Below are positions 1,485 through 34,606 of a stretch of 61,265 nt of DNA, piece by piece. The DNA lies in the IMG/VR virus record IMGVR_UViG_3300032164_003159, positions 1-61,265 of that record; one strand, written 5' to 3'. The number at the start of each line of letters is the position of its first letter. Within the stretch, counting starts at the first letter, position 1. The DNA comes from a virus (taxonomy: Duplodnaviria > Caudoviricetes). The notes under the pieces are model-generated. The model searched no databases. It was not told the origin of the DNA and worked only from the letters and a program-made list of their open reading frames with translations. A program made the translations under genes and the position numbers.

Positions 1485-1547
1485 TGAGGGCGCTCGCGGA
1501 ATCGAACCGCGATATTAGCAGGGGTTGAGCCCCAATCCAGCCCGCCC
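1485..1547 (-). ncRNA. tRNA-like element (T-arm present, D-arm absent)
   Basis: Minus strand GGGCG...GGGG-CTCAA-CCCC...CGCGG-TTCGATT-CCGCG-AG-CGCCC-TCA: canonical T-arm and a closing GGGCG/CGCCC stem. Confidence 0.45.
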
Positions 1548-1554
1548 ATAATGC

Positions 1555-1752
1555 CTAGTCCGGGATCAATTCGTTAACCGCGCTCTGAACGTCACGGGTT
1601 AACACGGCCAGCGCGATATTGTGCGGATCGGGGAGCGGGGTTTTCTTGCTGGCCGATACCAAAAACCACCCGCCAACCGGCTTGATCGTTACCGTGTAGC
1701 TTCCACCGGACGATTCAACCTCGAAAGTCTTGATTGCGCTGGAATTGATCAT
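1555..1752 (-). CDS. Hypothetical protein (start moved to MINSS)
   Basis: AACCGGGAGGCAAT leader immediately before ATG at 1752. Confidence 0.7.
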   Translation of the reverse strand: MINSSAIKTFEVESSGGSYTVTIKPVGGWFLVSASKKTPLPDPHNIALAVLTRDVQSAVNELIPD

Positions 1753-9637: not shown

Positions 9638-9708
9638 TGGGCCTGCTGTGAATCGAACACAGTCCTAACCGTTATGAGCGGCTGGCTCTACCTTTGAGCT
9701 ACAGGCCC
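9638..9708 (-). tRNA. tRNA with CAT anticodon (Ile2-like or Met)
   Basis: GGGCCTG TA GCTC AAAGGTA GAGC C AGCCG CTCATAA CGGTT AGGA CTGTG TTCGATT CACAG CAGGCCC A: full cloverleaf, no encoded CCA; acceptor stem resembles tRNA-Ile. Confidence 0.9.
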
Positions 9709-17800: not shown

Positions 17801-20004
17801 AAACACTTCATATTTTGGTCTGCCCAGCATATCACTATTCCCTTTCCTTGCGCTCCCCACAGGTGTACCGTAGATCTATGCAGTACGTGCTTGCCAGATC
17901 CACTTGCTCAAGGATACAATCTGCAAGTGCGTAGTACCGTATCTCGCCCTTATACGTTATGGGAATCCGAAACTGCGCAGATTTGACTAGGGCATTGCAC
18001 ACTTCTGGGGCCGGTTGATCCTGTAACTTATTATCCGCACAGCACGATAACGCAACACCGCATCGTCCTCCTTGACTTATGCCTTCCGATGAGCATCCAT
18101 TAGTTATCGGCGGGGTGATACTAACACCACACCCAGCTAACACTATTGCTAAGCTGGCCGCAATTATAATCTTCATTTACAAATTTCCTTGTCGTACTTT
18201 TTAATTAGCTTCTTGGCAAACTTGACCGTCAGGATTTCCGTAACCGTAAGGTTTCTTTTGCGTGCTTCAATAAATGTTACAGCTACATCAATAAGTCCGA
18301 TGAAGTGGCTATGTAGATAATTTGGTATATTGATCGTTTTCATTTAGCTACCCTATGCCAAAAGTGTTTCCAGTTTAGTTTCTTTACCATCTCTCTTAGT
18401 TCATCAGGGAGACTCTTTATAATATACCCAGGTTTCGCACTCTCTGGGATCTCTTCTCCGCGCTCTATTGCCCGACGTGCGCGCTCCTTTGGTGGATTGC
18501 TGCTGACTAACGGCTCTAGCAGAACCAAATCCACTAGGTATTCCGCTAGTTCATGCAGCGTTCTTATCATTTGCGCATCTCTTCTTCCATCTGCTCAATT
18601 CTTTTCTTCATTACAGCTAACCTCTCTTCGTCTGATTGTGTGGCGGTGACTACAAAATCCACCTTCGGAACATAGATATAACCAGACTCGAAGAAGCTAC
18701 TCATCGGCATCGGTGTAATGAATTTCCTAACGATCCATATTTCGTATCGCTCTTCCGCCTTTTTAAACTTATGCTCCCACCACTTGCATTTCCACCAGAG
18801 CGGACGGAAGAGATTACAAATGCGGTTACGAATGTACCACCAGATGTAGCATTTTATCCAGCGTACAATCTTCATTTTACCTATTCGCTCTAACATCTTC
18901 GCACTGGTTATTAACCCCGCACTCGTTCTCACAGTCCTTGTTTTTCTTATGTGGATCCCTGTGCGTGCATTTGACATTTATGCAATAATTACTGACCTCG
19001 GCATAACATGCTCGCAATGGCGCTTCCTTCAAAACCTTTGCGCGTTTTGAGGGCTCTTTCTTTACTGGATCTGTACTCATCTTCATGTGCGGGCTTGTAC
19101 AAGCAAGTGCAAACTGACAACTATCGCAGTATGGATCCCTTCCCGGACACACATTATTAACTTTGTCCGCTGCAACGGCTGCCATACCACGCACTATATG
19201 CGCAACATCCTCTACTGTTTCTTTTTGAGCGGCCGGTACTTTATCATGATGTTCCTTAATCGCGGCCATGATCTGGTCACACTCATTCAAGCGTGCCTCC
19301 GCCTCGCAGCGCTTGCAGGTTTCACGGATGTCCCTCCTGGTAACTTTTCCATCAATCGTTGGACCTGGCCCGCACTCTTTCATTATGTGGTGGCACATCT
19401 TTATAATTTGCTCATCCAAAATCTTTTTGCGTTCGTCTTTTCGTATCCGTTCCTCTCGTTCCTCTCGTTGGTCCCGTTTGCATTCTGCCAAAATGGATAG
19501 CAATTCTGCCTCTCGCCATTTGGTACGCGCACGGCATTCACCCCGATCTAGTTCTGTACGCGAATTAATATTTGTGCACACCCCGTAGGTATGTCCTTCA
19601 GGATCCTTAAATGGTTGATTACACAGTGGGCAATCACTACAGGTATGTTTCTCACTTGTAGGCGCTGGTGTATCCTCAACTGGTAAGCAGTGTGCTCCCG
19701 GATGATACCCACACGCGGCGTGCGGCCCCCAGGAATGACCATGCGGCCCACGGATGGTGCAAGATATAGCATTACACGTTCCTTTGGCATCCTCGGTGCA
19801 CTGGTACATTTGCTCTGGTCCTCTAGGACGGTGCTGCGCCTCCAAGCCATTAATTCTGTCTTCCAGATTGGCTATGCGCTTATCCCGCGCCGCCCAACAC
19901 TCAGCAATATCAAAATAGCTTTGCATGTTTATCTCCTTACGCTCTTCCGCTTTGGCTTCTTGCGCTTTTTGTTGTTGCTCGTGTTGTGCCCGCCACAGCA
20001 ACAT
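14851..20004 (-). other. Run of about 13 tightly packed small hypothetical phage genes (14851-15264, 15246-15428, 15421-15798, 15795-16097, 16105-16329, 16339-16815, 16812-17072, 17069-17335, 17345-17860, 17835-18176, 18340-18570, 18567-18977, 18877-20004)
   Basis: ATGA-type stop/start overlaps and GGAG RBSs; many Cys-rich; 17835-18176 has a lipobox-like LAGC. Confidence 0.7.
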
Positions 20005-20181
20005 TTCTTTTTGGATCTGTTCTCTGGATCCTTACAGTTGCTGAAGCACACATGTTTCATTGGCGGCCCAGCAACAAAAGCCGATGTTGGTAGTACGAGT
20101 ATCTAGTATGCGCTCTGCAGCATCTCCAAGACAAATAAACTCTATGGATACGTTTGAGCATACCCATTGTCATTCCTCCTC

Positions 20182-20871
20182 CTAGTGTGCCTTGCGTTTA
20201 TTTAATTCTTTATGCGCCTTATCTAACATTCTACCTAGTTTAATTAGCTTACCCAGAAGATCTCCCTTGTCATTTTGTAGTGTATAGATCTGGCTGCGCA
20301 GACGACTAACTTCTAATTCAAGTGCAACTGTATGGCTATGCGCGTGCTCGTATACCTCGTTTGATGTCTTGTAAGATCCACGAACTTTGTTCTCTATAGC
20401 GGACTGCAACTGTAGATTGGTATTGTTTAACTCTTCGATTAGTTGCAACTTGACAGCGGCAATGTCATTGTTTATGTTTGCCACAGCGTCTGCGGGGACA
20501 TGTGACCAGTACTCTTTATAATGTTCAATTTGCCCGTCCAGGTCGATTGGCCTACCTTGTAGATGCTTGTGGAAAGAGTTAAGAATGATTCCGGACATGT
20601 CGTCCGGATGAAATATCTCATTAGACTTGAACCAAAGCACTAATGGGCTATTTTCTTCCCACAGCTTCCACCGATTGCGAAGCTCTCTTCCAAAACCGTG
20701 GTGGAAAACGCCTGGTGCCCTGGTGCGCAATTCTATCTTGGCAGAGACGGGCAGCGTACGATCCAGTAAGTCTATCGCCTCTGTAAGGTTCTTAGGGACT
20801 ACATTCCAAAGTTCACCGAGGTCTACGCTTTCTTTTTCCTTGTCCGTGGCGTTGTTTAACATTAGGCGCAC
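20182..20871 (-). CDS. DUF6794-like protein with a coiled-coil tail
   Basis: HHGFGRELRNRWKLW...HPDDMSGII. Confidence 0.55.
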   Translation of the reverse strand: MRLMLNNATDKEKESVDLGELWNVVPKNLTEAIDLLDRTLPVSAKIELRTRAPGVFHHGFGRELRNRWKLWEENSPLVLWFKSNEIFHPDDMSGIILNSFHKHLQGRPIDLDGQIEHYKEYWSHVPADAVANINNDIAAVKLQLIEELNNTNLQLQSAIENKVRGSYKTSNEVYEHAHSHTVALELEVSRLRSQIYTLQNDKGDLLGKLIKLGRMLDKAHKELNKRKAH

Positions 20872-21215
20872 CTTTTCGTGTTTCTTTCTTCAGCGCCTTG
20901 ATAATCCATTCAAACAGAGAAAGATTATCAAGCATAACCATCAACAAACCCTTAGCCGAGAAATCTATTGCCTGTTCGAATGGTTTCTCTGCTGCCTTGC
21001 TCTTTTGAAATGCCGCGTCCAGATCAAAATGTGATGCTACAGCATGGGCCAACTCATGGAATATTGTTTCTACCTGCGCTGTTAACCCTAATTCCTTCAA
21101 ACCAGAATCCAATTTTATTACTTTGCTGACCGTGTCGCATACACCGTGAAACTTGTCATCTTTTTTGTAAACTATTCGGTATATGTCCTCGCCAACCTTG
21201 ACTTTTCTTATATTC
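20813..21215 (-). CDS. HExxH metallopeptidase-like protein; 5' end apparently interrupted by the TnpB element
   Basis: ETIFHELAHAVA; the reading frame begins exactly at the IS right end. Confidence 0.6.
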
Positions 21216-22415
21216 TTGAACCTCCCCCCAGCTAAAGCCGGTGGATTCCTGACGGAGTTACGCGACATCGCGGCTCCTCTCGTGGCTCGTTCCGAGCCCG
21301 GCAAGTAGCGTGTTACGAGCCGCGTTTACATCGCGGTCGTGCGTAGACCCACAATCCACACAGCGCCATTGCCTCACCGCAAGCTCGCTCAATCCTGTAG
21401 GACCAGAACGGCTCCCACAGTTCGAGCAAGTCATGGTGGTATTTCTGCTGTCTACGAGAACACATTTCCTACCATGATTATCACTCTTGTAGAAAACGAA
21501 GTTCCGTAGTTGGCTAATTCCTGCATCCCCAATTGACTTTCCAAACCGGCGCGCTTGTCCTTTGAGATTATCGTTTGTGATATAGAGTTCAGCATAATTC
21601 TGTACAAGATCTTTGGAGATTTTGTGGTTATAATCCTTTCTGCGATTGGCAATTTTTTCATGCAATCTGGCTGCTAACTTCTTCCTGTTTCCTCTCTGTG
21701 CTTGTGCTAATTTTTTCTGTCCTTTAATAAAGTTCCTTTGATTTTCATACTTGGTTCCATCACTAAGTACTGCTAAATGTTTGAAACCAGTATCAATACC
21801 AACCTTCTTGGTTGTTTCATAGACTTTGAAAGTGTGGTTAGCGTCCAGTATTAGTTGGAGATACCAACCGGATGCTTTCTTTACAATTCTTCCTCGCTTG
21901 ATTTTTCCTTTTGGAAGGTCTTGTTTGAAATACCGAATCCTTCCTAATCCTGGAAGATTGATCTTTCCGTTCTTGAACCGAGATACGGGGATAATATCTG
22001 GAAATTGGATGGATCGTAGTTTGTTGCGGATCCCTTTTAGTTTCGGTTTCCTTGCTAATTTCTTGAAGCAGCGTTTCCAAGAATTGTAAGCGCCCATCAG
22101 AGTTGCTTGAAGGGTATGGGAGGGAATCTCAAGTTTATCGGAATGATTAGAGCAAAGGTTACAAAAATCAAACGATGAAAAGTATAGTTTGTCTTTTGCA
22201 TTTAGTTCTATCTTCCTAATGCCAAAATTGTAAATACCTGTCAAAATCCACAACCACTCGTTTAGAGTAGATTCCAGTCTCTTTGCCGGTCTGAGTTTTA
22301 GTTCTCTTACTAACATTACAACTTTCTCATTCGCTTGACTACATGCCTAAAGGTAACGGTAGTTGACGGTATTATCCTACATTGGATCATACCAGAAGAA
22401 CTTGGATTATTTCAA
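21216..22415 (-). mobile_element. Non-autonomous IS200/IS605-family element (tnpB only)
   Basis: Right end GGAATCCACCGGCTTTAGCTGGGGGAGGTTCAA (typical hairpin plus TCAA) ending at 21216; left boundary approximate; no tnpA in the window. Confidence 0.7.
21258..22316 (-). CDS. tnpB: TnpB RNA-guided nuclease homolog
   Basis: N-terminal LKLRP HTH, RuvC-I VGIDTG, zinc finger CSNCG...CVDCG, RuvC-III DRDVNAARN. Confidence 0.92.
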   Translation of the reverse strand: MLVRELKLRPAKRLESTLNEWLWILTGIYNFGIRKIELNAKDKLYFSSFDFCNLCSNHSDKLEIPSHTLQATLMGAYNSWKRCFKKLARKPKLKGIRNKLRSIQFPDIIPVSRFKNGKINLPGLGRIRYFKQDLPKGKIKRGRIVKKASGWYLQLILDANHTFKVYETTKKVGIDTGFKHLAVLSDGTKYENQRNFIKGQKKLAQAQRGNRKKLAARLHEKIANRRKDYNHKISKDLVQNYAELYITNDNLKGQARRFGKSIGDAGISQLRNFVFYKSDNHGRKCVLVDSRNTTMTCSNCGSRSGPTGLSELAVRQWRCVDCGSTHDRDVNAARNTLLAGLGTSHERSRDVA

Positions 22416-22442
22416 TTAGTGTCCGTAGACATGGCACTGTCC

Positions 22443-22658
22443 TTACTCTTCTTCCACTGCCCAAACTGGTTCAAAGCCAATGACCTTCAGCATTTTTGTC
22501 ATACGAATCTTAGCGCTCTTCTTGTCTTCATCTTCCATATGAATGCTAAGCTTGTGCTCTCCCCAGGCAACCGTAGCAATGTCGTAAACGCCCTTTCGTG
22601 AACGGATTCTCTTGATAATGCACTGAGCTTGTTTACGTGTTTTGGCCGGCTCTTCCAT
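22443..22658 (-). CDS. Hypothetical protein
   Basis: AAGGTG RBS; in the gene run. Confidence 0.6.
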   Translation of the reverse strand: MEEPAKTRKQAQCIIKRIRSRKGVYDIATVAWGEHKLSIHMEDEDKKSAKIRMTKMLKVIGFEPVWAVEEE

Positions 22659-22686
22659 GTGTCACCTTATGTATCATACTCCATAA

Positions 22687-23337
22687 TTACACATTCTTGA
22701 GATGCGCAAAGTCCCTGAACTTTAGCTTTGTAATGATGCGACCACCAGCGCGGCTAGCCATAAAGATCACTGGGCGCAGTACAATCCCCTCGGCCTGGAA
22801 TGGGTTAGTGGGGTTCCACTTTGAAAAGAACCCAGCCTTGACAAATTCTACGGCCTCTGGAATAGTTCCTATACCCATCACAGGCACAAAATCAATGCCC
22901 AGCTTCACAGCAATATCGACCACGTTTGGTTGTAGAAGCCACCAACGGCCAACACGAACGTCAAATAGTACAAAACTCGGATCGTCACGGTATTTCCCCC
23001 CTTTGTTAATCTTCGATCCGTAGCATTCTCCATAAAGAACTACCAAATTCTCTGGATTGTTTATATCTGGAGGAAATTGCGCCGCCAATTTCTCAGCAGG
23101 AAACATACCGCGCAATGTTTCAAGGGGGAAGGCAGGCATAACAGCCATGTCTGTCTTTCCTCCAAACTGCACGGTCTTGCCATCCCATATTACACGGCAA
23201 TTCATGCCGTCCACCTTCTCTGTCCACATCCATTGGTTGCCTGCTAGGTATTCGATTTCGGGGGTGGCGTACTGTCCTATAATAAAGTGTTTGTGCTCGT
23301 CCCGTTTGAATACTGAATTTATCTTCGGGTACTCCAT
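22687..23337 (-). CDS. ATP-dependent RNA ligase (Rnl2-like); start MEYPKI
   Basis: Motif I TEKVDGMN, LYGECYG, FVLFDV, EGIVLRP, KLK. Confidence 0.85.
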   Translation of the reverse strand: MEYPKINSVFKRDEHKHFIIGQYATPEIEYLAGNQWMWTEKVDGMNCRVIWDGKTVQFGGKTDMAVMPAFPLETLRGMFPAEKLAAQFPPDINNPENLVVLYGECYGSKINKGGKYRDDPSFVLFDVRVGRWWLLQPNVVDIAVKLGIDFVPVMGIGTIPEAVEFVKAGFFSKWNPTNPFQAEGIVLRPVIFMASRAGGRIITKLKFRDFAHLKNV

Positions 23338-23339
23338 GA

Positions 23340-23720
23340 CTAACAAGTTTCCTCCTTCCCTGCAGCGATCATTCCATCGACTAAGGATCGCAGCACTTTC
23401 CGTTCCCCAGTCTTGGCAAAGCCAGAGGCCCACAGTATAGCGATTAGTTCATTCACGCGCTTCTTGGTTTCCTTGGACAGTTCCCGCGTGTAGATCGCAT
23501 GCCCAACGTCCCGCGCCTCTTTCTTCGCACGCCTGACCCGACGCTTGTCCAGCACCTTCTGTGCCTTCACAGGAAGCGCTCCCTTGGCCTTGCGAGCCAT
23601 GGCTACCTCGACAGGGTCGTCCTCTGGCGGAGGGGTCTTGGGAGTAGGGAACACAGCAGGGGTTGTCTTACCGGTATTGTCGATAACATGAATCCGCTTC
23701 TCCGTCTTCGTTTCGGACAT
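23340..23720 (-). CDS. Basic hypothetical protein with its own promoter
   Basis: TTGACA-N17-TATATT promoter and GGGAGG RBS. Confidence 0.7.
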   Translation of the reverse strand: MSETKTEKRIHVIDNTGKTTPAVFPTPKTPPPEDDPVEVAMARKAKGALPVKAQKVLDKRRVRRAKKEARDVGHAIYTRELSKETKKRVNELIAILWASGFAKTGERKVLRSLVDGMIAAGKEETC

Positions 23721-23759
23721 GCATTACCTCCCAGCGCGTTAACTTAATATAAGCACTGT

Positions 23760-24785
23760 TTAGTGTTTGTCAAGTATGGACTTTCGCAGCAGGTGTTGAT
23801 TACTGTGAATACCAATTCTACTGGAAAATTCATCGCTAGATATTTTTCTGCTGTCCATTTTCTTCAGCATGTCAAGTGTGCTTTCGAAATCATTTCCTAA
23901 GCACTTTACACTAATGACTAACTCAGCGAGAGCAGCGAATGACAATCCATCACTTCGCGCTACCCACTCTGCCAATTCCCCGCCATTTATTTTTAGCTTA
24001 GTGCTAAGATAAATTCTTCGTGTCTCCTTAGACGGTGGCTCTACCTTTATAACTCTGTCAAATCGTCTTGGGCGGGCCACCAATCTACGATCCAACCGCT
24101 CTGGATAATTAGTGGTGGCTATATTCAAAACTTTATCTATTTGATATTCACCATCGAGCAGTGCTAAAAGTTCATCGTCACCATGGTGTGATACAATTGC
24201 GTCGATATCCTCGAATATACATATGATGCGGCGGTCCCGCTCAATCTTACGAAATGTTACCAGCGCGTCTTTCAGGATGGACGGGTGTGCACATACCATT
24301 ACGATTCCGCCGGACATTACAATTTTATTAGAGACTAGTTGAACTACTGCTGTCTTACCCCCACCAGCAATACCATATAGTAAGTATCCTCTCCTGTGTA
24401 GAAATCCATAATCATGAAATATCTTCTCGCGTGTCCAAAAAGATTCAATCTCGTCACAGATTAGTTTTGGCAGGCCGTCTGGAAAATCTATGAGCGCGTC
24501 TACTTTGATGTCCATCTTTTCAAATCTAATTCCCTGTTGTGTTCGGTGTTGGTTGTACACGCCGGGTGGAAGTATTGGGATGGTTTGCCCAACTGCTAAA
24601 TATTCGTCATGGCCCGAGATAGCCCATTGGGTAAGCTGACTACCATACCCGCGTTCTTTAGACTCACAAGGATCGCATGGGGCTACTGATTCGCACTGTG
24701 CTTTAGAGGGCACTATGTTTTCGTTGCTATTTTTTTGGTCGGTTCCGAATTCATTAAGGGGATCGGACTTAGTCTCATCTGCCAT
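23760..24785 (-). CDS. AAA+ ATPase
   Basis: Walker A GYLLYGIAGGGKT, Walker B IFEDID, TTNYPERLD..L..RP.RFD. Confidence 0.9.
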   Translation of the reverse strand: MADETKSDPLNEFGTDQKNSNENIVPSKAQCESVAPCDPCESKERGYGSQLTQWAISGHDEYLAVGQTIPILPPGVYNQHRTQQGIRFEKMDIKVDALIDFPDGLPKLICDEIESFWTREKIFHDYGFLHRRGYLLYGIAGGGKTAVVQLVSNKIVMSGGIVMVCAHPSILKDALVTFRKIERDRRIICIFEDIDAIVSHHGDDELLALLDGEYQIDKVLNIATTNYPERLDRRLVARPRRFDRVIKVEPPSKETRRIYLSTKLKINGGELAEWVARSDGLSFAALAELVISVKCLGNDFESTLDMLKKMDSRKISSDEFSSRIGIHSNQHLLRKSILDKH

Positions 24786-24962
24786 AATGTTCTCCTATAC
24801 GTCTGGAACCTTTTTGGACTTCCAACTGCGCAAACAAAATGAATTCCCAATGTATTTCTTACGCTTGCGCTTTTGACGCCTCGCTGGCTTATCGCATCGT
24901 TGCGGGCATACTCGTGCCGTCTTCTGGCTCATTACAGGCATTATACTTCGAAATTCACGAGT

Positions 24963-25226
24963 TTAGTTGTTGGACTTTTTGTAACTAAAGATCTTGGCTT
25001 TGACCCCGATGAATGTTCCTACAGCATTTCCACAAGCGTATCCTAGAAGCAACCAGTAATCTTTTGTAGCGGTGTACTCACTTACAACAAGAATCGCCAT
25101 CAGGGAAATGATCAGAGAGAGGAAAGACGCCAGGCAGGGCCGGTTTGAAATAACGGACTTCTGATAATGAACTAGCAGAAAGTCCATTCCAAGACCAAGC
25201 GCGAAGTATAAAGCGAACGACAGCAT
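24963..25226 (-). CDS. Small membrane protein (about 3 TM)
   Basis: Hydrophobic helices; YACGNAVGTFIG. Confidence 0.65.
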   Translation of the reverse strand: MLSFALYFALGLGMDFLLVHYQKSVISNRPCLASFLSLIISLMAILVVSEYTATKDYWLLLGYACGNAVGTFIGVKAKIFSYKKSNN

Positions 25227-25292
25227 GTCCTACTCGCTTCAGCGGAGGTTCTTCTACAGGTGATGCGTCTTGTTCCTTGTCCATTTCAAAAC

Positions 25293-25796
25293 CCTTGCTA
25301 AGCCTTGCAACGCCCTGCCACGCCCTACCGTGCAACGCCCTGCCCAGCTACACCCAGCCGCGTACCGCCGCAAACACCTTTCAATCGACAATATTGCTAT
25401 GCCTTGCCCAGCCAGGCCGCGCTCTGCCACGCCCTGCCGCGCCGCTCCCAGCCCAGCGCACTTATAGTCTAACTTAGATTTACAGGATTGTAAACTGCTG
25501 TCAACAAACTAGCCTTGCCTAGCTATGCAGCGCCCAGCCCAGCCACGCAACGCCCTGCCACGCACGTCCGCGCATCGCCAAGCCTCGCCGCGTACACAGC
25601 GAACTACGAAAACTTGTAAAACAATCCTTGCCGCGCATAGCCGTGCCGCGCCGTACCCTGCCACGCCCAGCCGATCTTCGCCGGGTATTTATAGAACTAT
25701 ACATTTTATATTATAAAACGTTTGCCTTGCCGTGCTCTGCCCGGCCTCGCAATGCCGCGCCAGGCGCAGCCGGTCCGTGCCGTTCCTGGCATCGCC
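25293..25796 (-). repeat. Array of five (GGC-NN)n pentamer units with AT-rich linkers; candidate guide-RNA array
   Basis: Units 25722-25796 (15 pentamers), 25626-25682 (11), 25510-25589 (16), 25394-25458 (13), 25293-25369 (15). Strict 5-nt phase; each has NGCAAGG at or near its 3' end. Confidence 0.9.
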
Positions 25797-25801
25797 ACGA
25801 G

Positions 25802-26410
25802 CTAAGCCTTAAATTCCATTGACTTGAACTCTACCAACCGGAATTTTCCGAAGTGTGGACGGAACGTGCCAAGACCTACACAGAGCCCGCCTTCCTCGAA
25901 GATTCTCTTCAGGTCTTGTACTTCTAATTCCTTAGACGGCAGAACAATCAGGTGGAACGTTATCTCCCAAGGGGTAGGAAGCACAGGCCTGCTCTTAGGA
26001 TTTGGAATACCCTTGGGCAATCTAGCAACGGCATGATGAATATACATACCAGAGAGCGCATCCTTACCATCATCGTCGAACTTTCCAATCTTTATGGGCT
26101 TGCCCTTCTTAGTAAATACAATCTCATCCTCTTCGATAGTTACAGCAGTTGCGATGCTGCGGGCAACCTTCTTATACGTCCTTGAGTCGAATAGGATTTT
26201 CGTGGCGCTGGGCGTATTTTCTGCGGTTAGAAAGCTTGATATATTTGTCGATGGCAGAACGAGTGTTTTTCCGTCGGCGGCGAGATACATCTTTTCTTGT
26301 GGATTCAGTTCCGTCCTGTTTGACCCTGGATAGCGGTCGAACATTATCCCACGCATCCCAGTAATCCCCTGCAAGACAAGCTTGATCCGTGTCGGCTTTG
26401 AGATCGCCAT
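25802..26410 (-). CDS. Solo RAMP/Cas7-like protein
   Basis: N-terminal strand I.L.LQG...IMF, LVLPS.NI..FL, R P....W...F.L, and C-terminal glycine-rich loop GLGTFRPHFGKF typical of RAMP proteins. Confidence 0.7.
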   Translation of the reverse strand: MAISKPTRIKLVLQGITGMRGIMFDRYPGSNRTELNPQEKMYLAADGKTLVLPSTNISSFLTAENTPSATKILFDSRTYKKVARSIATAVTIEEDEIVFTKKGKPIKIGKFDDDGKDALSGMYIHHAVARLPKGIPNPKSRPVLPTPWEITFHLIVLPSKELEVQDLKRIFEEGGLCVGLGTFRPHFGKFRLVEFKSMEFKA

Positions 26411-26443
26411 TCTGATCCTCCGTTTCGTTTTCGATTATTAAAC

Positions 26444-27196
26444 CTAAATCTTTTCTACTGGTGCTACCTGAAATGGTTCGTGTACTAAAAGTTCTTGCCA
26501 TCTGTAGTCCTCCCTACTTTTTATGTCAAAGTAGAGGAACCCTACGTCTATAATACCTTGACAAATGCGTGTACCGAAATCGCTGCTAAGCTGGAGCCCC
26601 GGAGTAGTGAGTGCCAATCCGAAGCGGGTCTTGGCCATAACATGGTAATGCACGTGGCTACGAACAACCACATCAGCCTTTACATTTTCCTTTACACACG
26701 CTCCTAGGATAGTCCAAAGCTGTTCTCTTAGAAGCGCGGTGGCTCGCCCATGTGGAACAGTGGAGGAACTGATCTTGTGCCTGAAGTTGAACATGCAGCC
26801 ATTTACATCCAAGGACATCGCAAGATCGAATCTCGCGCCAAGGTAATCAGCCAGGATCTTTTCGAAGTTCTCTTCCTGGCCAGTGTGATATGGTGTGCCG
26901 GCTATTATATAAACTTTCTTGGCATCGAACTGGTTTATGCACTCCATCGCCATTCGAACCTGTTCCTCACGATCCGTAGTGATCAATTCGTTGCCACCGC
27001 TCTTTGGAGACTTCCCGTCAATCGCATCGCCATTGCACACTAATGCGTCAACCGGCCCGAGCGCCTTGGCCTGCTTCTCATACCATTTCCATAATTTCTT
27101 TTGTACTACGGTGGTTTGCCAGCCTTCTCTTGAAGGCGGAACCATGCCCAATTTGTGACCGCAATGCAAATCACTAATTATTACGAGTCTTTTCAT
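26444..27196 (-). CDS. Calcineurin-like metallophosphoesterase
   Basis: ISDLHCGH, NGDAIDG, GT.YH, SHVH. Confidence 0.8.
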   Translation of the reverse strand: MKRLVIISDLHCGHKLGMVPPSREGWQTTVVQKKLWKWYEKQAKALGPVDALVCNGDAIDGKSPKSGGNELITTDREEQVRMAMECINQFDAKKVYIIAGTPYHTGQEENFEKILADYLGARFDLAMSLDVNGCMFNFRHKISSSTVPHGRATALLREQLWTILGACVKENVKADVVVRSHVHYHVMAKTRFGLALTTPGLQLSSDFGTRICQGIIDVGFLYFDIKSREDYRWQELLVHEPFQVAPVEKI

Positions 27197-27565
27197 GGGT
27201 TACCTCTTACAGCTATAATACTGTAAATCGAGGAACCCGATTAAAATACTGTCTGGGAGGCTTTTAGAGGGCTTTTGGAGGTTAGTTACTTCTTGGCTTT
27301 ATCTTTGCATCCGGACAGTACACCATCTAGAAACTTACAAAACTCGTCCACAAAACTGGTCTTGTTCTCGGCCGCTTCCTTGTTTAGCTTTTGCACAACT
27401 GGGCTTTTCATCCAGTGCACAAGCACTACAGAAGCTGACGGAGGTTCTTCCAACATTCTCCTACCACAACACTGGTACTTCTCTGCATCTTCCATGAGCA
27501 TAATGTTTGCTCTAGGAACATTCTTGGTCTTGCAGCAGACATGGCACCACAGCACTGTTTTGCCC

Positions 27566-28231
27566 TTATGTTTTGTCGGCATCGGTCGGCTCCTTGATAG
27601 GTGTAGCAAGCGCCGGCACGAACTCAGCGTAACGCCCACCACCCATTGTAGCTAGCACTTTGGGATCAGTATGAACTGGGTTTCTAAAGCCCGGGGTCTT
27701 AGACCGCTCATTTAGTAGTTCGAGCACGCGCTCCTGTGTAATAGGAAGAAAATTAGTAACGTCCACGCCGACATTAAGAGAAATCCCAGAAAATATCCTA
27801 AGCTGGTGGATGTGCCCTGAGATTACAAAATCGAATCCGTCAACACTTATCTCGTTGGCTGAATCCTTAAACGGGTCATCAGAGCCCACCGGATAGATAG
27901 GCCTATGGTTCAACAAGCAGCGGTACGGACCGATGTTCGCTATCATCTGATTGCAGCAGAAGGGCATCCGCTTACGTGTGCGGCTGCTGTCGTGGTTGCC
28001 CGCAATAAGAATGATAGTACCCTGGAGATGCTTCAGGTATTGGTTCGGGTCATGGTTTCTTGTAAATGCGAAGTCTCCCATGTGTATAACAAGATCACTC
28101 TGCTTTACAACGGAATTCCAATTCTCAATTAAAGCCTTGTCCATTTCTTCTACTGTAGCAAAAGGGCGTTTGCAATATTCAATAATATTGACGTGCCCGA
28201 AATGGGAATCTGAAGTGTACCAGATAGTCAT
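27566..28231 (-). CDS. Calcineurin-like metallophosphoesterase
   Basis: TSDSHFGH, GDF, GNHD, GHIH, NVGVD. Confidence 0.88.
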   Translation of the reverse strand: MTIWYTSDSHFGHVNIIEYCKRPFATVEEMDKALIENWNSVVKQSDLVIHMGDFAFTRNHDPNQYLKHLQGTIILIAGNHDSSRTRKRMPFCCNQMIANIGPYRCLLNHRPIYPVGSDDPFKDSANEISVDGFDFVISGHIHQLRIFSGISLNVGVDVTNFLPITQERVLELLNERSKTPGFRNPVHTDPKVLATMGGGRYAEFVPALATPIKEPTDADKT

Positions 28232-28448
28232 TAACCTGTGTTACTCCCGATAGGTTCGATCATATGGATTCTCTGTATCACGCCGTATGTCTCGTTGATA
28301 CTGCTGCGCAACATTCCTGCAATCCTTGCACCAAGAAGACAATCCGTCAGCATGCGTGCGATCCCTATGATAATACTTCCGACCCTGCCAGTGTCCGCAC
28401 CTAGGACAGGTTTTAGTCGTTATAAGTCCGCCGTCGGAATTCACCATA

Positions 28449-28805
28449 TTACGTTCCTTCTTTGTTAGGCCCACTAGCCGACTCCTTTTCCACCGGGCAT
28501 GTCACCGGTTTTCCAGAATCATCCAGCTTAGAAAACAGAGAGATTTGATCATAGCGACAGAAGTAATAATATATGTGTCCTTCCAGACATGCCAACTTTA
28601 TAACTGCGCGGTCGAAAATCGTATTATCGTATGCCACTACATCCTTTCCAGAATAATTTGTGCAGGATTTCTCTGGTGGACATTTATTGTCGCAGGCAGT
28701 AAAAACATTACTAACGAGGATTGTTATAAGCGCTCCAATAATGCAAAACAACAAAAAGTTACGCGCTTCCCTGTCTGTACTAAACATGTGATTACTCCTT
28801 TTCAA
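28449..28805 (-). CDS. Membrane-anchored hypothetical protein
   Basis: N-terminal hydrophobic helix; overlaps the rmlD stop. Confidence 0.55.
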   Translation of the reverse strand: MKRSNHMFSTDREARNFLLFCIIGALITILVSNVFTACDNKCPPEKSCTNYSGKDVVAYDNTIFDRAVIKLACLEGHIYYYFCRYDQISLFSKLDDSGKPVTCPVEKESASGPNKEGT

Positions 28806-29694
28806 ACATGTCAGAGGAAATTACAGTAATGCCCTGAGGCGGTGTGACGTGTGCTGCTATCAATTTACCACAAAACATTGCTGCAAGCCGTGGGCGTTTA
28901 GCGAAACGACCTTTATTTGCTTCATCCATAGAAACGGCATTGATCTTGAAAGAATGTTCAGACCAATCGAAGCATGCAGCAACCCTATTAGCTAGAGCAT
29001 AGGGGCTGCACGATTCTCCACACGCATGATAAATTCCAAATGGTACCGGCTTCTCTACACAATCAAAAATCACACGCGCCAACTCTGGAGCCCACGTAGG
29101 ACAAAACACAGAGTCACATGAAAAGTTCAGATCTCTATTCTTTTTCATTTCCCTAAAAATAGTTAATGGTAATCCTTCTCCATTAATCCCAAATAGCCCA
29201 CTCGTTCTAAAGACCCAGGACTCCGGCTGGATCGTGCCAACATTTATTTCCCCGAGAAATTTACTTATTCCATACTGTGAAAGTGGGTTTGGGTATGTAA
29301 TTTCTTTGTACGCAATTAGTTCTGCTGCACCCCTACCACGGTCAAAGCCATCAAATACATAATCTGTACTCACGTGCACTAGGGGAATCTTAGCAAGCGC
29401 GCAAGCAGATGCCAAGTTCGCAGGCCCGATAGAATTGGTAGCGTACGCCTCGGAACGTCCGGGGCCAGTCTCAGCCCCATCTACATTGTTATATGCGGAG
29501 CAGTTTATCACTAGTCTCGGTTGCCAATCATTCTCTACAATCTGCTGAATACATTCAGCATGGTTAGTGATGTCTAAACTAAATCGGATGGTGCGATTAT
29601 GGTACGGAGCCATCAACACATGCTTACGCAATGCGCCCTCGTGCATTACGGCCTTCCCCAGCTTTCCTGCACCACCAATCACTAAGATGTTCAT
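28792..29694 (-). CDS. rmlD: dTDP-4-dehydrorhamnose reductase
   Basis: GGAGKLG, NCSAYNNVDGAE, STDYVFDG, YGISK, KRP. Confidence 0.88.
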   Translation of the reverse strand: MNILVIGGAGKLGKAVMHEGALRKHVLMAPYHNRTIRFSLDITNHAECIQQIVENDWQPRLVINCSAYNNVDGAETGPGRSEAYATNSIGPANLASACALAKIPLVHVSTDYVFDGFDRGRGAAELIAYKEITYPNPLSQYGISKFLGEINVGTIQPESWVFRTSGLFGINGEGLPLTIFREMKKNRDLNFSCDSVFCPTWAPELARVIFDCVEKPVPFGIYHACGESCSPYALANRVAACFDWSEHSFKINAVSMDEANKGRFAKRPRLAAMFCGKLIAAHVTPPQGITVISSDMFEKE

Positions 29695-29867
29695 TTACAC
29701 TGGCCCCCAAATGGAATACTGATCGTATCCAAGTTCTCTGTTGTAAGCCGCCACGACAGGCGCTTGTTTTCTACCTTATGCACACGCTCGCATCGCGCTG
29801 CGCCTTCTTCCAGTTCGTAATGTTTATGACAAATGTCGCACTCATACTTTATTACTTTGGTCGGCAT
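29691..29867 (-). CDS. 58-aa C2H2-like zinc-finger protein (not in ORF track)
   Basis: MPTKVIKYECDICHKHY...CERVH; GGGAGG RBS; ATGA overlap with rmlD. Confidence 0.55.
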   Translation of the reverse strand: MPTKVIKYECDICHKHYELEEGAARCERVHKVENKRLSWRLTTENLDTISIPFGGQCK

Positions 29868-29868
29868 A

Positions 29869-30077
29869 CTACCTCCCGTGTCGCAGTTCCTTGAGGAATG
29901 CTACAAGCGCCCAAATGCCGAAGAACAATAGGGCGACGGCGACGACAAATGCGATCCCTCCCCAGAACGGACAGGTCACCCACCACCAGGACCAATCGAT
30001 TACCCCACACAGCTTGAGCGCCACGAACAGTACGCCCAGTGCGCGCTAGGGCATCCCGTGCAGTTCCGTGATAGCAT
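29869..30077 (-). pseudogene. Doubly frameshifted small membrane protein gene
   Basis: Three frames splice to MLSRNCTGCPS/ALGVLFVALKLCGVIDWSWWWVTCPFW/GGIAFVVAVALLFFGIWALV..., a common phage small membrane protein pattern. Confidence 0.55.
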
Positions 30078-30390
30078 TCCCTTACATTACCTAGGCGATC
30101 CCATTGTTTCGGCACATAGGGATATTTCCTGTTTTTCCAGGAACGCACATTGACAAAACCCTCTATCTTGGGGCCAGCCCGCGATGAGGATTCGAACCGC
30201 TTAGAATTTCCAAATAGTTCGATCACGGAGGATATGTGCCTCTCTGGTATTCTCTGCCACCATCCCGGCTGCACGCTTCCCCATCAATAGCCTTACATTT
30301 TCTCATGCGCCGGGCTTTCCCTCTATTGCGCTCTTCGCGTTTGCTATACTTTCTGCAGCGTTTTGGCCTGGAATCCATTAAACCTACTTT

Positions 30391-33245
30391 CTACCTGTCT
30401 GGATTATAGTAATGCTTGGGAATGTCCTTTTCATCCATCTTTGGATCGCCCTCCACACGAACATAGTTTAGAAAGCGTTCCGCATCGGTAATATCACGTG
30501 GGAGCCAAAGAAATTCCCTGAGCAGATCGATTGCTTGATCAATGTTGCCATCATCCAAGCACACTGGATAACTGATACTGAAGATTACCCGTCCGTATCG
30601 TTTTTTGCTCATGTTATGCTCCTCTGTTTTTCCAATTTATCTACCAACTCATTCGCTTCCTGGAATCCATACTTGTATGTCTCCTACCGTTGGGATGCCG
30701 CGCCTATAGAATAGAACAACCAGCAGAGCACGGCCGCTAATATGACAACTGTAGCCAGCATCCACCTAACAGCTTTCCTACTGATCCCACGTGGCATTTT
30801 CCTAAGGCAATCTTCGCAAAGTTCTGGACTTTCTGGCATTCGTTCTATGAATGCGAGTACAGCAACACGTTCCATTGCATGTATTAGTGAACTATCATCT
30901 TTAACGTAATCCAGACCAAACTTATTTCTAACAATGTTCAGCAATCGTTTTCTTAAGGTAACTTGCATCCTATCCTCCGATGCTTGGTAATACGGATTGC
31001 CAAGCGTTACTTGATGTAATAGATATAATCCTTATCTTCACCAATAAATCCATCGTTGAGTTTTCTTACTATTTCATCTGCAAGCTCAAACGATGTCGAT
31101 GTAAGGATCGTCCATCCTCTCATAACTGCTGAAGTTACAAGAAGCTGAAATCTACCAGATTTCCTTGACTTGCGGTAAAGACGTGTATCTTTGTTCATGG
31201 CATCCTCCTTGACAGCTTACACTGATCATTATACCCACTGATCGTATTTTGTCAAGTAATTATCTTTAGGTGGAACTTAAATCAATAAGGTCGTACTGTA
31301 CCATAATGGAATACGCTTGATTAAGCTCAGTCATTACCCGCCCAAGGCACTCATCTATCAGCAATACACGGTTTTCGCTGGCGTGCGGATTATCCATTAC
31401 GTGCCTTTGCAGAGACACCAATTCCTTATTAAGCAAGTCCAAATGCTTAAGAAGGTTCTGAATCTTAGTATTTACTTCTGCAGTGTTCATTAGCAACTCC
31501 GCAGAGTATTATCCGATATATTATACCAGCATGTCAAGTTCTGAAGATTATTTTGTTGTGTACACGTAAGTTACATCGATACAGCGACTTGGCGTTCCTG
31601 GAGTCTGATCTTCTTTTGATCCTGGTATGATAGGCGGCAGCGTAGAATTGCCGGAATTGAAACGCTGCACTAGCTTATCCAGTTCTTCATCCGACAAATT
31701 GTACACAATGAACTCTATAAGGTCCGCCTGGGATGTAAATTCATGTTTCAGGCAGTACGCCAGGTAGTTCTCTTTAGCGCCGCGTTTGCGCTCGCCTGCC
31801 GTCATGGTCGCCTCCACCTACATTATACGGCTCGGCCAGACTTTGTAAAGCTTAAACGTGTCCCCGTTCTCTCTGCGTCGGTTCCGAATCGCCAGCAGGG
31901 TGGACCTGTCCAGGTGACGTTGCCAAGTCCTCCAGAGCCTCACTCAAGTCTTTAGCGCGCTTGGACTTAGGGACCAGCGCTATCTTCTCTCTGTGTTTAA
32001 GTATCCATTTCATTAACTCGGGAACAGGAAGATACTTTTCATTGAATTGGCATATCTTGTCCTCTAGCAAAATGAACTTTTTAGCAAGCTCTCGCAATAT
32101 ATAGCGCATGATGCTATTCTTCTCTGCTGGATCATTAACCTCTACAAAGCGGGCATCAGTCAACTCATTATGAATCAATGTCTTTACCTCAGTTACCCGG
32201 GAATGCATATCGACAAATTTCTCCTGCAGATCCAAATAGGATGATTTCCACATATCCGCCGCTTTTTTCGCGTCGTCGCATTTTGACTGCGCTTCTTTGC
32301 TCTCATCGACCGACCGTGCCAAGCGATCTTCGAAATCTCTGCGATTTTGCGCCAGGGCATTCTTATGAGCATTGAGAGACGCCTGGGTAGCGTGTAACTC
32401 GTCAATTAATTGGTTCTTGGTTTGCTTTTTGGACATGACCAACTCCTTTTCGTTTGCGCTGCGTTTACGTTACATTTCGTTTCGTACAACTACTACTATA
32501 ATAATGATAACCAAGAACTAATTAGTTGTTAAAGTACTGTTTTATGTATAGCTGCGTCAGTGTCAAATGTGCTCTCTATATTGGCAACCGCATTAGATAT
32601 TCTGATGCGCTCATTATCAGAATAATGAAACCAATGTGGGCAAGTACTGCACGGTTCTGATATCTGTACTATCGGCCAGGACTTGAATTCAGCAGTAATA
32701 GCATCGTGGTACGACTGCATTCTTGTATATGTCTCCACACTTTCCATCCGTACGGCTCTTGACAAGTCATACAATATAATTATCTTGAGAACATTAGGCC
32801 CCCACATCTTTGTAACCTTATCTGAAACCTTTTGAAGCTTATCTGTAAATTCGATTGGGGTAAATCGTGGAACTTCTTTACCATACTTCTTTAGCGCGAG
32901 CAAATCAATATCTGGGCCGAGTGCATAGCGTGTTCCATCTTCTAATATGTAACCCCTAAAACAACCCTCATTGAACGGAGAGAACAGGAATGTGTGAATT
33001 GCGGTTGGAATCTTAAATACCCGAACATAGCCCTCTCCCCAAAGGTCTTGGTGGGGAACAGGGACACGAATACCAGGCTCAGCCTTTTCCAAAAAGAAAT
33101 CCATAGTCATAGCATGTGCATTGTAGGTATCGGACCATGGAATCGTAGCACAATTACACATGCTAAATCTACGAATGTAGTCTATTCCACCAGCTACGGC
33201 CATGGTACTTACTCCTATTGGAAAAAAGAAAAATGAAACGGGCAT
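30391..33245 (-). other. Run of small hypothetical genes (30391-30612, 30684-30968, 31007-31198, 31266-31496, 31548-31805, 31852-32436, 32529-33245), several with their own TTGACA/TATAAT promoters
   Basis: RBSs, and promoter boxes near 31230-31255, 31520-31537 and 31822-31850. Confidence 0.65.
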
Positions 33246-33516
33246 GCGGAGGAGCCCTAGCCTGTTTCACGATTAACCTGTTGGATATGTGCGGCTTTGT
33301 TAGGATGATCTCAACTGGTTCTATCGGATCTTCTGGGCGGGGAAGCGGCCCGCGTGGTGGCCCCAACTCTAAATCTTCTTCCTCGCCGCTCGCTGTAGGT
33401 TTTGCATTAGAAAAATACACCCTGCGTATAACTTGTATTGTATAGTCTGGGTCGTTTGTAGTTGAAGTACGATCCGGAACAAGCCGTGTAACGTATGCGC
33501 CATGCACACTTTCTAC

Positions 33517-33611
33517 AGTTGTACCAGTGTCTGCACGCACATTTGTGTATGTACAAGTTGTACCAGTGTCTGCACGCACATTTGTGTATGTACAAGTTGT
33601 ACCAGTGTCTG
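33517..33611. repeat. 39-bp tandem repeat (2.4 copies) inside ORF 33169-33639
   Basis: agttgtaccagtgtctgcacgcacatttgtgtatgtaca repeated; DTGTTCTYTNVRA in the protein. Confidence 0.9.
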
Positions 33612-33646
33612 AATAGGTATTTGCGTAGAATGCGGCCACAATCGTA

Positions 33647-34606
33647 TTATACTACGGTGGGTGACTTACCTATCGTCTCTTTTAGTTCCTGCGTCCAATT
33701 ACTTATTTCCTGTAGGCTGTTGCTTAACACTTCCTGGAACATTAACCTAGCTGCAGGTTCATCCTTAGCCTCACAAAGCAGCTGGTAACGCTCTTCATCC
33801 TCTATAATCGAATCTCCTATCCCGTGCCGTAGTTCATCTGGCGTATAACCCCAGCGTTTCACCACAGCCACAGCCTTGTCGTAGTCTATGACTACCGCTG
33901 GGACGGTATCCAGTCCAATCTGTTTGGCGGCGGCTAGGCGGTGGCTCCCTGTCCAAGCCTGGTATCCATCCTCGAAGGGCTCCACAAGCAAAGGGCGGCC
34001 TTCCCAGCCATGTTCCTGCATCTTCTGGGTGAGAGATGCTAGCTTCTCTTCATCCCTAACCTCGTGCAGCGGGTTCACGCGCTCTATCGGAAGCTCCACA
34101 ACAGCCTGGGTTGCCCGTCTGGCCGGTCCGAGCTTCTGTCGGAACTCTTCCCAACACTCTGGGGCCTTAAACGTCTCTCCATAGGTCTTGAACATGTCCA
34201 GGTTTTTATCTTCATCATCGACAAAAACCATTTCCGCATCACCGTATATCGGGAGAACTTGGTTCTTTAGTATACTTCTCTTCAGTGTGCGACTGTGCAT
34301 ATTGCTATCATTCGGGCGCATAAATAACTCATCTTCAGACGGCCGTATGCCATAATGTTCTTGAAGCCAGGCCGCAGTCGTTTCCCTGAGATGCTGTGGT
34401 CGCCCCGTTAGAAAGATTACTTTATCAAATTGTTCTACAAGACGAGGAAGCACATCTTGAGTTAATGGCAGCGGGGGATCTTGCGTAACGAGATCGTGAT
34501 CGAAGAACTTGTCCCATTCCGTTAGTGTCATCCTCCAATTACCGACGGCTGGTGCACGATGGGATGCATCAGCTAGCGTCCCATCGATATCAAGAACCAA
34601 GATCAT
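33647..34606 (-). CDS. HAD phosphatase (PNKP-like) fused to a ParB/Srx-like domain
   Basis: DIDGT, LTGR, MRP, VDD; C-terminal half PLLV...TGSHRLAAAKQIGLDTVPAVV. Confidence 0.8.
   Translation of the reverse strand: MILVLDIDGTLADASHRAPAVGNWRMTLTEWDKFFDHDLVTQDPPLPLTQDVLPRLVEQFDKVIFLTGRPQHLRETTAAWLQEHYGIRPSEDELFMRPNDSNMHSRTLKRSILKNQVLPIYGDAEMVFVDDEDKNLDMFKTYGETFKAPECWEEFRQKLGPARRATQAVVELPIERVNPLHEVRDEEKLASLTQKMQEHGWEGRPLLVEPFEDGYQAWTGSHRLAAAKQIGLDTVPAVVIDYDKAVAVVKRWGYTPDELRHGIGDSIIEDEERYQLLCEAKDEPAARLMFQEVLSNSLQEISNWTQELKETIGKSPTVV

Follow-up and report, generated by a model that had tools for sequence, protein, structure and literature searches.

VIPR (Viral Interference Programmable Repeat) has been described as a CRISPR-related, phage-borne device that binds the DNA of rivals, and the first accounts date from 2026 (10.64898/2026.04.26.720920; 10.64898/2026.04.26.720927; 10.64898/2026.10.15.759431), the last of them being a preprint on competition with satellites. 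As presented in the 2026 preprints, VIPR binds DNA under RNA guidance, its guide code is interleaved and non-contiguous, and it is proposed to be older than CRISPR. The Vipr protein is reported to be a ~20 kDa protein with a RAMP fold, whose partners are vrRNAs of 9–16 GGY/NN repeats followed by a 3′ tail (10.64898/2026.04.26.720920). Each repeat is occupied by one protomer, with its GGY bases sequestered in the protein (10.64898/2026.04.26.720920; 10.64898/2026.04.26.720927); the NN bases pair with double-stranded DNA, passing over one base of the target at every repeat, which in coding targets is mostly the wobble base (10.64898/2026.04.26.720920). The use of one protomer per short RNA segment and the periodic flipping of bases by a thumb are likened to Cas7 (10.64898/2026.04.26.720920; 10.64898/2026.04.26.720927). 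According to two of the preprints, the mechanism as a whole has been shown for Escherichia phage SUSP1, in whose clade the vrRNA 3′ tail is invariant, is structured with a pseudoknot, and caps the RNA (10.64898/2026.04.26.720920, 10.64898/2026.04.26.720927). These accounts name rival prophages and satellites, along with other VIPR loci, as natural targets (10.64898/2026.04.26.720920, 10.64898/2026.04.26.720927, 10.64898/2026.10.15.759431). Some VIPR types are described as carrying predicted nucleases or helicases, the nuclease-bearing ones being types III–V (10.64898/2026.04.26.720920). As further family traits we took discrete vrRNAs of at most ~100 nt that co-purify with Vipr, natural targets with at least 80% NN identity under the 1-nt skip, and an accessory vap gene beside vipr in most but not all types.

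We analyzed a 61,265-nt stretch of viral DNA (hereafter, the window) from an IMG/VR record with a CheckV completeness of 21%. Almost all of its genes lie on the minus strand, and its left end also looks phage-like. Pentamer arrays in this window adjoin the gene of a RAMP-fold protein that is homologous to the SUSP1 Vipr protein and whose homologues co-occur with such arrays in 98/99 loci; therefore, we consider it very probable that the minus-strand segment at 25294–26410 is a VIPR locus of an uncultured sediment phage, consisting of one vipr gene and five vrRNA genes. The element is real, but of an already known kind. It adds one natural VIPR example from an uncultured sediment phage, in a clade whose protein has only its C-terminal part in common with SUSP1. 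An earlier reading of this DNA from its letters alone (the sequence-only reading) had taken the free bases of each pentamer for guide information, a view that both homology and the experiments published for a relative support.

Pentamer arrays of the window

The minus strand at 25294–25796 contains five arrays of 11–16 pentamers each, of the form N-G-C-N-N (Table 1). An independent parse reproduced the five units and every NN string listed in the sequence-only reading, unit for unit, and agreed with it that NGCAAGG stands at or near the 3′ end in 5/5 units and that U1–U3 open with GGCGA. The GGCGA start is local rather than family-wide, being the first pentamer in 8/226 related arrays. The GT-AG/AG-GT runs pointed out in the same reading do recur, but their excess over composition is weak (three shared words of three dinucleotides vs. 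0.95 expected; 160/2000 shuffles were as high).

Table 1. Features of the putative VIPR locus and its immediate surroundings (window coordinates)
Feature	Position	Strand	Remarks
Putative vrRNA unit U1	25721..25796	-	15 GGC/NN pentamers; last two NN are AA AA, within the GGCAAGGCAA 3′ motif
Putative vrRNA unit U2	25627..25682	-	11 pentamers; ends in GGCAAGG
Putative vrRNA unit U3	25509..25589	-	16 pentamers; ends in GGCAAGGCTAG
Putative vrRNA unit U4	25393..25458	-	13 pentamers; ends in GGCAAGGCATAGCAAT
Putative vrRNA unit U5	25294..25369	-	15 pentamers; ends in TGCAAGGCTTAGCAAGG
AT-rich spacer	25683-25720		no promoter-like site called
AT-rich spacer	25590-25626		no promoter-like site called
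AT-rich spacer	25370-25392		no promoter-like site called
Candidate sigma-70-like promoter	25466..25494	-	TTTACA-17-TAGACT in the AT-rich spacer before U4; weak
vipr (probable)	25802..26410	-	202-aa stand-alone Cas7-like RAMP protein, from fold model and profile match to SUSP1 Vipr protein
Metallophosphoesterase-like gene	26444..27196	-	250 aa; 34 nt upstream of vipr; Pfam Metallophos E 3e-4

When the whole 61-kb window was scanned, U1–U5 were the sole runs with at least five in-phase GC dinucleotides at period 5. Strict GGY runs with at least four members were confined to U1–U5 (4 vs. 0.07 expected in base-shuffled windows). Among the 70 pentamers of the window, position 1 was G in 51, position 2 was G in 69, and position 3 was C in 62, and the information content at the two following positions was 0.16 bit (position 4) and 0.01 bit (position 5). 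That is, the triplet is fixed, mainly at G2-C3, and NN is near random, which bears out the claim that the units differ far more at NN than at the triplet. The variable guide parts of U1–U5 comprise 13, 10, 14, 10, and 12 dinucleotides, respectively, if one to three A/T-rich repeats at the end of each unit are assigned to the tail.

The spacers between the units are AT-rich and 23–50 nt long. We regard the candidate promoter before U4 as weak because three promoter-like sites were found in 1.8 kb when 1.9 were expected, and the promoter/terminator scan of the same 1.8 kb returned no terminator. Rfam at gathering thresholds reported tRNA alone; therefore, no hammerhead lies between the units.

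The probable vipr gene and its family of loci

The arrays start 6 nt past the stop codon of the 202-aa ORF, downstream of it and on the same strand. This ORF had no Pfam match, and its PHROG match was phrog_4652, a family of unknown function. A single-protein scan of IMG/VR returned no close relatives and 4 kb of the locus gave no blastn match among GenBank phages; in public metagenomes, 68 homologues of ~200 aa were found. An alignment of 50 sequences showed an invariant glycine-rich C-terminal motif, G..G.GT.R...G, with G174, G179, G181, T182, R184, and G188 invariant, and R141 was invariant as well. The AlphaFold (AF2) model of the protein had a pLDDT of 96.1. Its closest structural neighbour was Csm3 (9g9a_D; Z 12.3, 166 residues aligned, rmsd 3.9), followed by Cmr4 and then by type VII, type IV, and type I-D Cas7 (Z 9.4–12.3, Csm3 included), and Foldseek agreed with the Csm3/Cmr4/Cas7 family (E 3e-6). 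The predicted fold of the 202-aa protein is thus that of a Cas7-type RAMP, with an RRM core, a thumb, and a glycine-rich loop.

The profile of the 50 homologues matched one solved chain, PDB 36pp_D, annotated as 'SUSP1 Vipr protein' (E 1.5e-7). Using hhalign, the family was aligned with the SUSP1 gene product (KT454805 28474-29061) with a probability of 96.3% and an E value of 1.6e-9, over the C-terminal 52 columns only; this stretch comprises the thumb end and the G-loop. SUSP1 residues R138, W178, and R179, which are reported to contact G2 and Y3 (10.64898/2026.04.26.720927), align with R141, F183, and R184 of the window protein. SUSP1 D177, which is reported to contact and read G1 (10.64898/2026.04.26.720927), aligns with T182, so that the G1-reading aspartate is replaced by an invariant threonine in the family of the window.

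The window shares its RAMP fold with the class 1 CRISPR-Cas backbone proteins (Cas7: Csm3, Cmr4, Csf2, and type I-D Cas7). In contrast to class 1 systems, the period is 5 nt with two pairing bases, and the guide would be interleaved with the scaffold rather than contiguous. No CRISPR-like direct repeats were found in the window, and the 17 ORFs scanned at 18877-34606 contained no cas families (cas1/cas2 or other) except a TnpB/Cas12f-like transposon gene at 21258-22316. Membership in class 1 CRISPR-Cas was rejected, as these scans showed neither a repeat-spacer array nor a further cas gene.

The comparison with VIPR type II (Escherichia phage SUSP1 and a Pseudomonas fulva prophage; PDB 36pp) is closer. 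Both have a stand-alone RAMP protein of ~200 aa with a G-loop; 9–16 GGY/NN pentamers adjoining the gene on its strand; a fixed scaffold with hypervariable NN and a conserved 3′ end in each unit; and a phage-borne setting without cas genes or CRISPR repeats. The differences lie in the details. The scaffold of the window is GGC with a relaxed first position (the 51/70 G noted above), i.e., looser than the published GGY, whereas the SUSP1 arrays that we recovered use GGT in every GGY unit but three. The 3′ end is a short GGCAAGG followed by a U-rich stretch with no supported fold in the window, compared with a structured tail of ~40 nt in SUSP1. All five units lie downstream of the gene, whereas SUSP1 has one upstream and three downstream, and no vap1-like gene is evident next to the window's vipr, whereas SUSP1 carries vap1 after vipr. 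As a positive control, our array finder recovered the SUSP1 vrRNAs on both sides of vipr-vap1, namely one upstream and 2/3 of those reported downstream, each with a hairpin-forming tail after it. What sets the locus apart from the VIPRs studied so far is the use of GGC rather than GGU with a loose first base, the short GCAAGG 3′ motif, the five units all downstream, and the absence of an evident vap1-like gene; such members show which features are essential (G2, Y3, and the G-loop arginine) as opposed to those that are free to vary.

Loci with a homologue were fetched via the family alignment, giving 99 loci (80 from IMG/VR and 19 from GTDB genomes). At least one GGY/NN array lay within 3 kb of the homologue gene in 98 of these, and nearly all arrays were on the homologue's strand, directly up- or downstream. 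In the 226 distinct family arrays, the frequencies were 0.90 for G at position 1, 0.97 for G at position 2, and 0.89 for C and 0.07 for T at position 3, with 0.14 bit at position 4 and 0.04 bit at position 5. A pattern scan for such arrays matched at least 136 viral contigs.

GCAAGG was present at the 3′ end of 157/226 family arrays; therefore, the "handle" proposed in the sequence-only reading is a clade-wide feature. That part of the claim stands; the putative capping or processing role given to the handle is based on this conservation and on the analogous 3′ tail of SUSP1. The spacers 3′ of the window's arrays showed no conserved or unusually stable fold (z-scores -2.4, 0.7, -0.25, 0.3, and -1.4); therefore, a SUSP1-like pseudoknot tail is not supported, and the tail of the window's clade appears to be short and unstructured.

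The strand and the partner protein also bear on whether the arrays act as guides at all. TRAP, which governs trp attenuation in Bacillus, binds (G/U)AG-NN(N) repeats, ~11 or more, with one protein subunit per repeat; the bound RNA is the target of regulation rather than a guide, and its spacers are devoid of information. The window resembles TRAP RNA in having triplets parted by two free bases, although the protein folds are unrelated. This resemblance, together with the absence of target matches for any guide in the searches described below, would suit arrays that serve as DNA binding sites (origin, partition, or packaging iterons) or as a decoy RNA titrating a ring- or filament-forming protein in the manner of TRAP, with NN devoid of target information. 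We consider this very unlikely. The arrays stay on the strand of the RAMP gene in almost all of the 98 loci, which a double-stranded site would not need. Their partner folds as an RNA-binding RAMP, and a homologue of it was shown to be guided by RNAs of this kind (10.64898/2026.04.26.720920; 10.64898/2026.04.26.720927). The near-random NN over 226 arrays also fits hypervariable guides, although a pure spacer could vary too. No TRAP-like protein was found among the 17 neighbouring genes scanned (18877-34606). G-quadruplexes, an R-loop origin, Rho or TRAP-like sites, and DNA iterons were rejected as candidates, given that the conserved bases are G2-C3 and not GG and that the arrays share their strand with the RAMP gene.

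Parts of the stretch were present in 13 sequencing runs, all of DNA and labelled as sediment or lake-water metagenomes, and the contigs of four of these runs were aligned to 24900-26500 to compare strains. These four sediment runs yielded 14 in-array differences: six at position 1, one at position 2, one at position 3 (T to C), three at position 4, and three at position 5. Positions 2 and 3 account for one change each vs. six at positions 4 and 5 together; position 1 varies as much as the latter two combined. In U2, the NN of pentamers 9 and 10 were changed, and one double NN change was seen; the U5 variant differed mainly at position 1, and a single contig was strongly diverged in the U4–U5 spacer.

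One contig of run X4 carried ~103 extra nt, the size of one unit, at 25514-25528, where the 3′ motif of U3 lies. Run X3 contigs also break there, with an array-like loose end. These single low-depth contigs fit whole-unit gain or loss at the conserved motif.

The variants also help to judge whether the arrays are merely a functionless pentanucleotide microsatellite derived by slippage. Tandem Repeats Finder does report weak period-10 and period-20 arrays inside the array region. Nevertheless, this origin is hardly credible, since NN varies widely inside each unit while the 3′ ends are conserved, the five units are separate and parted by AT-rich spacers, they are strictly associated with one protein family, and the strain variants spare G2 and C3.

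In the same four sediment runs, contig depth was 4- to 10-fold higher at 25386-25443, and short contigs with 7–10 mismatches and array-like loose ends were stacked at 25400-25443. The stacked contigs suggest that many other GGC/NN (VIPR) arrays exist in the same habitats.

Proposed decoding and target search

Returning to the VIPR reading, we infer that the mechanism described for SUSP1, including its decoding, operates at the present locus. Each unit would be transcribed to give an RNA of ~60–90 nt, along which Vipr would form a helical filament with one protomer per pentamer. Within each pentamer, G-G-Y (mostly G-G-C at this locus, where G2 and C3 hardly vary) would be flipped into protein pockets, and the two N bases would be displayed for pairing. 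The filament would then bind double-stranded DNA reading NNxNNxNN, with one target base skipped per repeat, usually the wobble base in coding targets. Binding would produce an R-loop or triplex and thereby block transcription in a competing phage, prophage, or satellite. The 3′ end, in which A/T-rich repeats and a U-rich stretch come after GGCAAGG, would be this clade's counterpart of the capping 3′ tail of SUSP1. Two ideas of the sequence-only reading anticipated this scheme: that NN carries the information, which matches the mechanism published for VIPR in 2026, and that one target base is skipped per pentamer with the wobble positions ignored, which matches the published VIPR code almost exactly. 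For the present locus, both are probable by analogy.

We scored the guides under skips of 0–3 nt, with shuffled-order controls. Within the window, the best NN identity of any self-target was 60–77% across skips 0–3, not above the shuffled-order controls. In the 236 fetched loci (0.99 Mb), the best values were 62–82% for the same skips and lay inside the null. IMG/VR and metagenomes were searched with exact seeds of 7–9 dinucleotides from U1, U3, U4, and U5 under the 1-nt skip, and the rest of the guide was scored after each match. Later seeds were set at the 3′ side because R-loop growth is reported to start at the 3′ end (10.64898/2026.04.26.720927).

In IMG/VR, the 8-dinucleotide seed of U1 gave one match, which reached 19/30 on extension. 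The 7-dinucleotide seeds matched at least 116 loci for U3, at least 79 for U4, at least 119 for U5, and at least 119 for the second U1 seed. Among the matches listed, the seed extensions followed binomial expectation. The best of those listed was 19/20 for U4 in locus L377, with 0.3 such matches expected among 79. For U1, three loci reached 22/26 vs. 0.3 expected among the matches listed, which is a slight excess and the sole one; the expected frequency of a 22/26 match is one per 3.5e9 positions. These three matches lie in different, unrelated genes and frames, one of them being the gene of an HTH protein in a 62-kb phage. When the other four guides were compared with the four whole phage records behind the top matches, none scored above the null.

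In metagenomes, the 9-dinucleotide seed of U3 gave five matches, which reached 20–21/28 on extension. The full U3 pattern with up to three mismatches had no match in five genomes with related Vipr genes. Gapped matches of the concatenated NN strings had been expected in the sequence-only reading; this expectation was not borne out, as no match exceeded the shuffled or binomial background. In sum, no natural target was found for U1–U5 in the window or the fetched loci, or for the seeded guides U1, U3, U4, and U5 among the matches listed from IMG/VR and the metagenomes, and all gapped matches were at chance level.

Neighbouring genes and further arrays

The neighbours of vipr include two metallophosphoesterases, an AAA ATPase, an RNA ligase, the TnpB gene, and a PNKP-ParB fusion; a sigma factor and an SNF2 helicase lie further left in the window. 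No gene other than vipr was conserved across 101 loci. A YqaJ-like exonuclease was found near vipr in 17/101 loci.

The metallophosphoesterase-like gene directly upstream of vipr may be an accessory gene or a mere syntenic neighbour. A homologue adjoins vipr in 12/101 loci. Seven of the nine tree-placed loci that carry it form one supported Vipr clade beside the window, among sequences from Planctomycetota bins; the tree was a quick version with several long branches from crude ORF calls, and only its coarse clustering was used. This distribution, together with the predicted nucleases or helicases described for some VIPR types (10.64898/2026.04.26.720920), would be consistent with a VIPR locus that destroys its target, the metallophosphoesterase being an accessory nuclease recruited to vrRNA-bound DNA as proposed for types III–V. 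We regard this as improbable. The Pfam match is weak, no solved relative of the protein was found by sequence, and the clustering may reflect nothing more than shared synteny of related phages. In addition, a second metallophosphoesterase, the RNA ligase, and PNKP are nearby, and the gene may instead belong to an RNA-repair module; the word 'phosphoesterase' does not appear in the main text or in the methods/legends supplement of the preprint that describes the types (10.64898/2026.04.26.720920).

A broader proposal combines this possibility with the features that set the window apart from SUSP1: its clade, drawn from sediment, planctomycete, and proteobacterial sources, would be a distinct VIPR type with an N-G-C scaffold (threonine for aspartate), a short unstructured GGCAAGG cap, and one sub-clade bearing a target-cutting metallophosphoesterase nuclease. 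We put this forward as a speculative and rather unlikely extension of the VIPR assignment.

The RNA ligase (22687-23433), the two metallophosphoesterases (26444-28231), and the PNKP phosphatase fused to a ParB-like N-terminal domain (33647-34606), all on the minus strand around the VIPR locus, together resemble a set for the repair of RNA or nucleic acids. The TnpB gene (21258-22316, minus strand) is of the IS605 family, has Cas12f1-like TNB and OrfB_IS605 domains, and lies 3 kb downstream of the VIPR array. The strongest tandem repeat of the window is a perfect 39-nt repeat at 33517-33611 (2.4 copies, 100% identity). The tRNA reported by Rfam is a tRNA-Met at 9638-9708. ARAGORN called a tRNA-like gene at 1486-1556 (minus strand) with a two-base anticodon ('ca'), which is absent from Rfam at the gathering threshold.

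Further arrays were observed outside the window. Viral contigs L022, L137, L196, and L221, among others, carry unbroken GGC/NN tracts of 40–140 pentamers, far longer than one vrRNA; these may correspond to arrays that the preprint calls 'staggered'. Burkholderia phage vB_E436 contains a 14-unit GGC/NN array (L001 3883-3952; PQ789831.1 ~31063-31132) in an unannotated VIPR locus. The array lies in the gap just upstream of 'hypothetical protein' vBE436_00039, a protein with 44% identity to the Vipr protein of the window.
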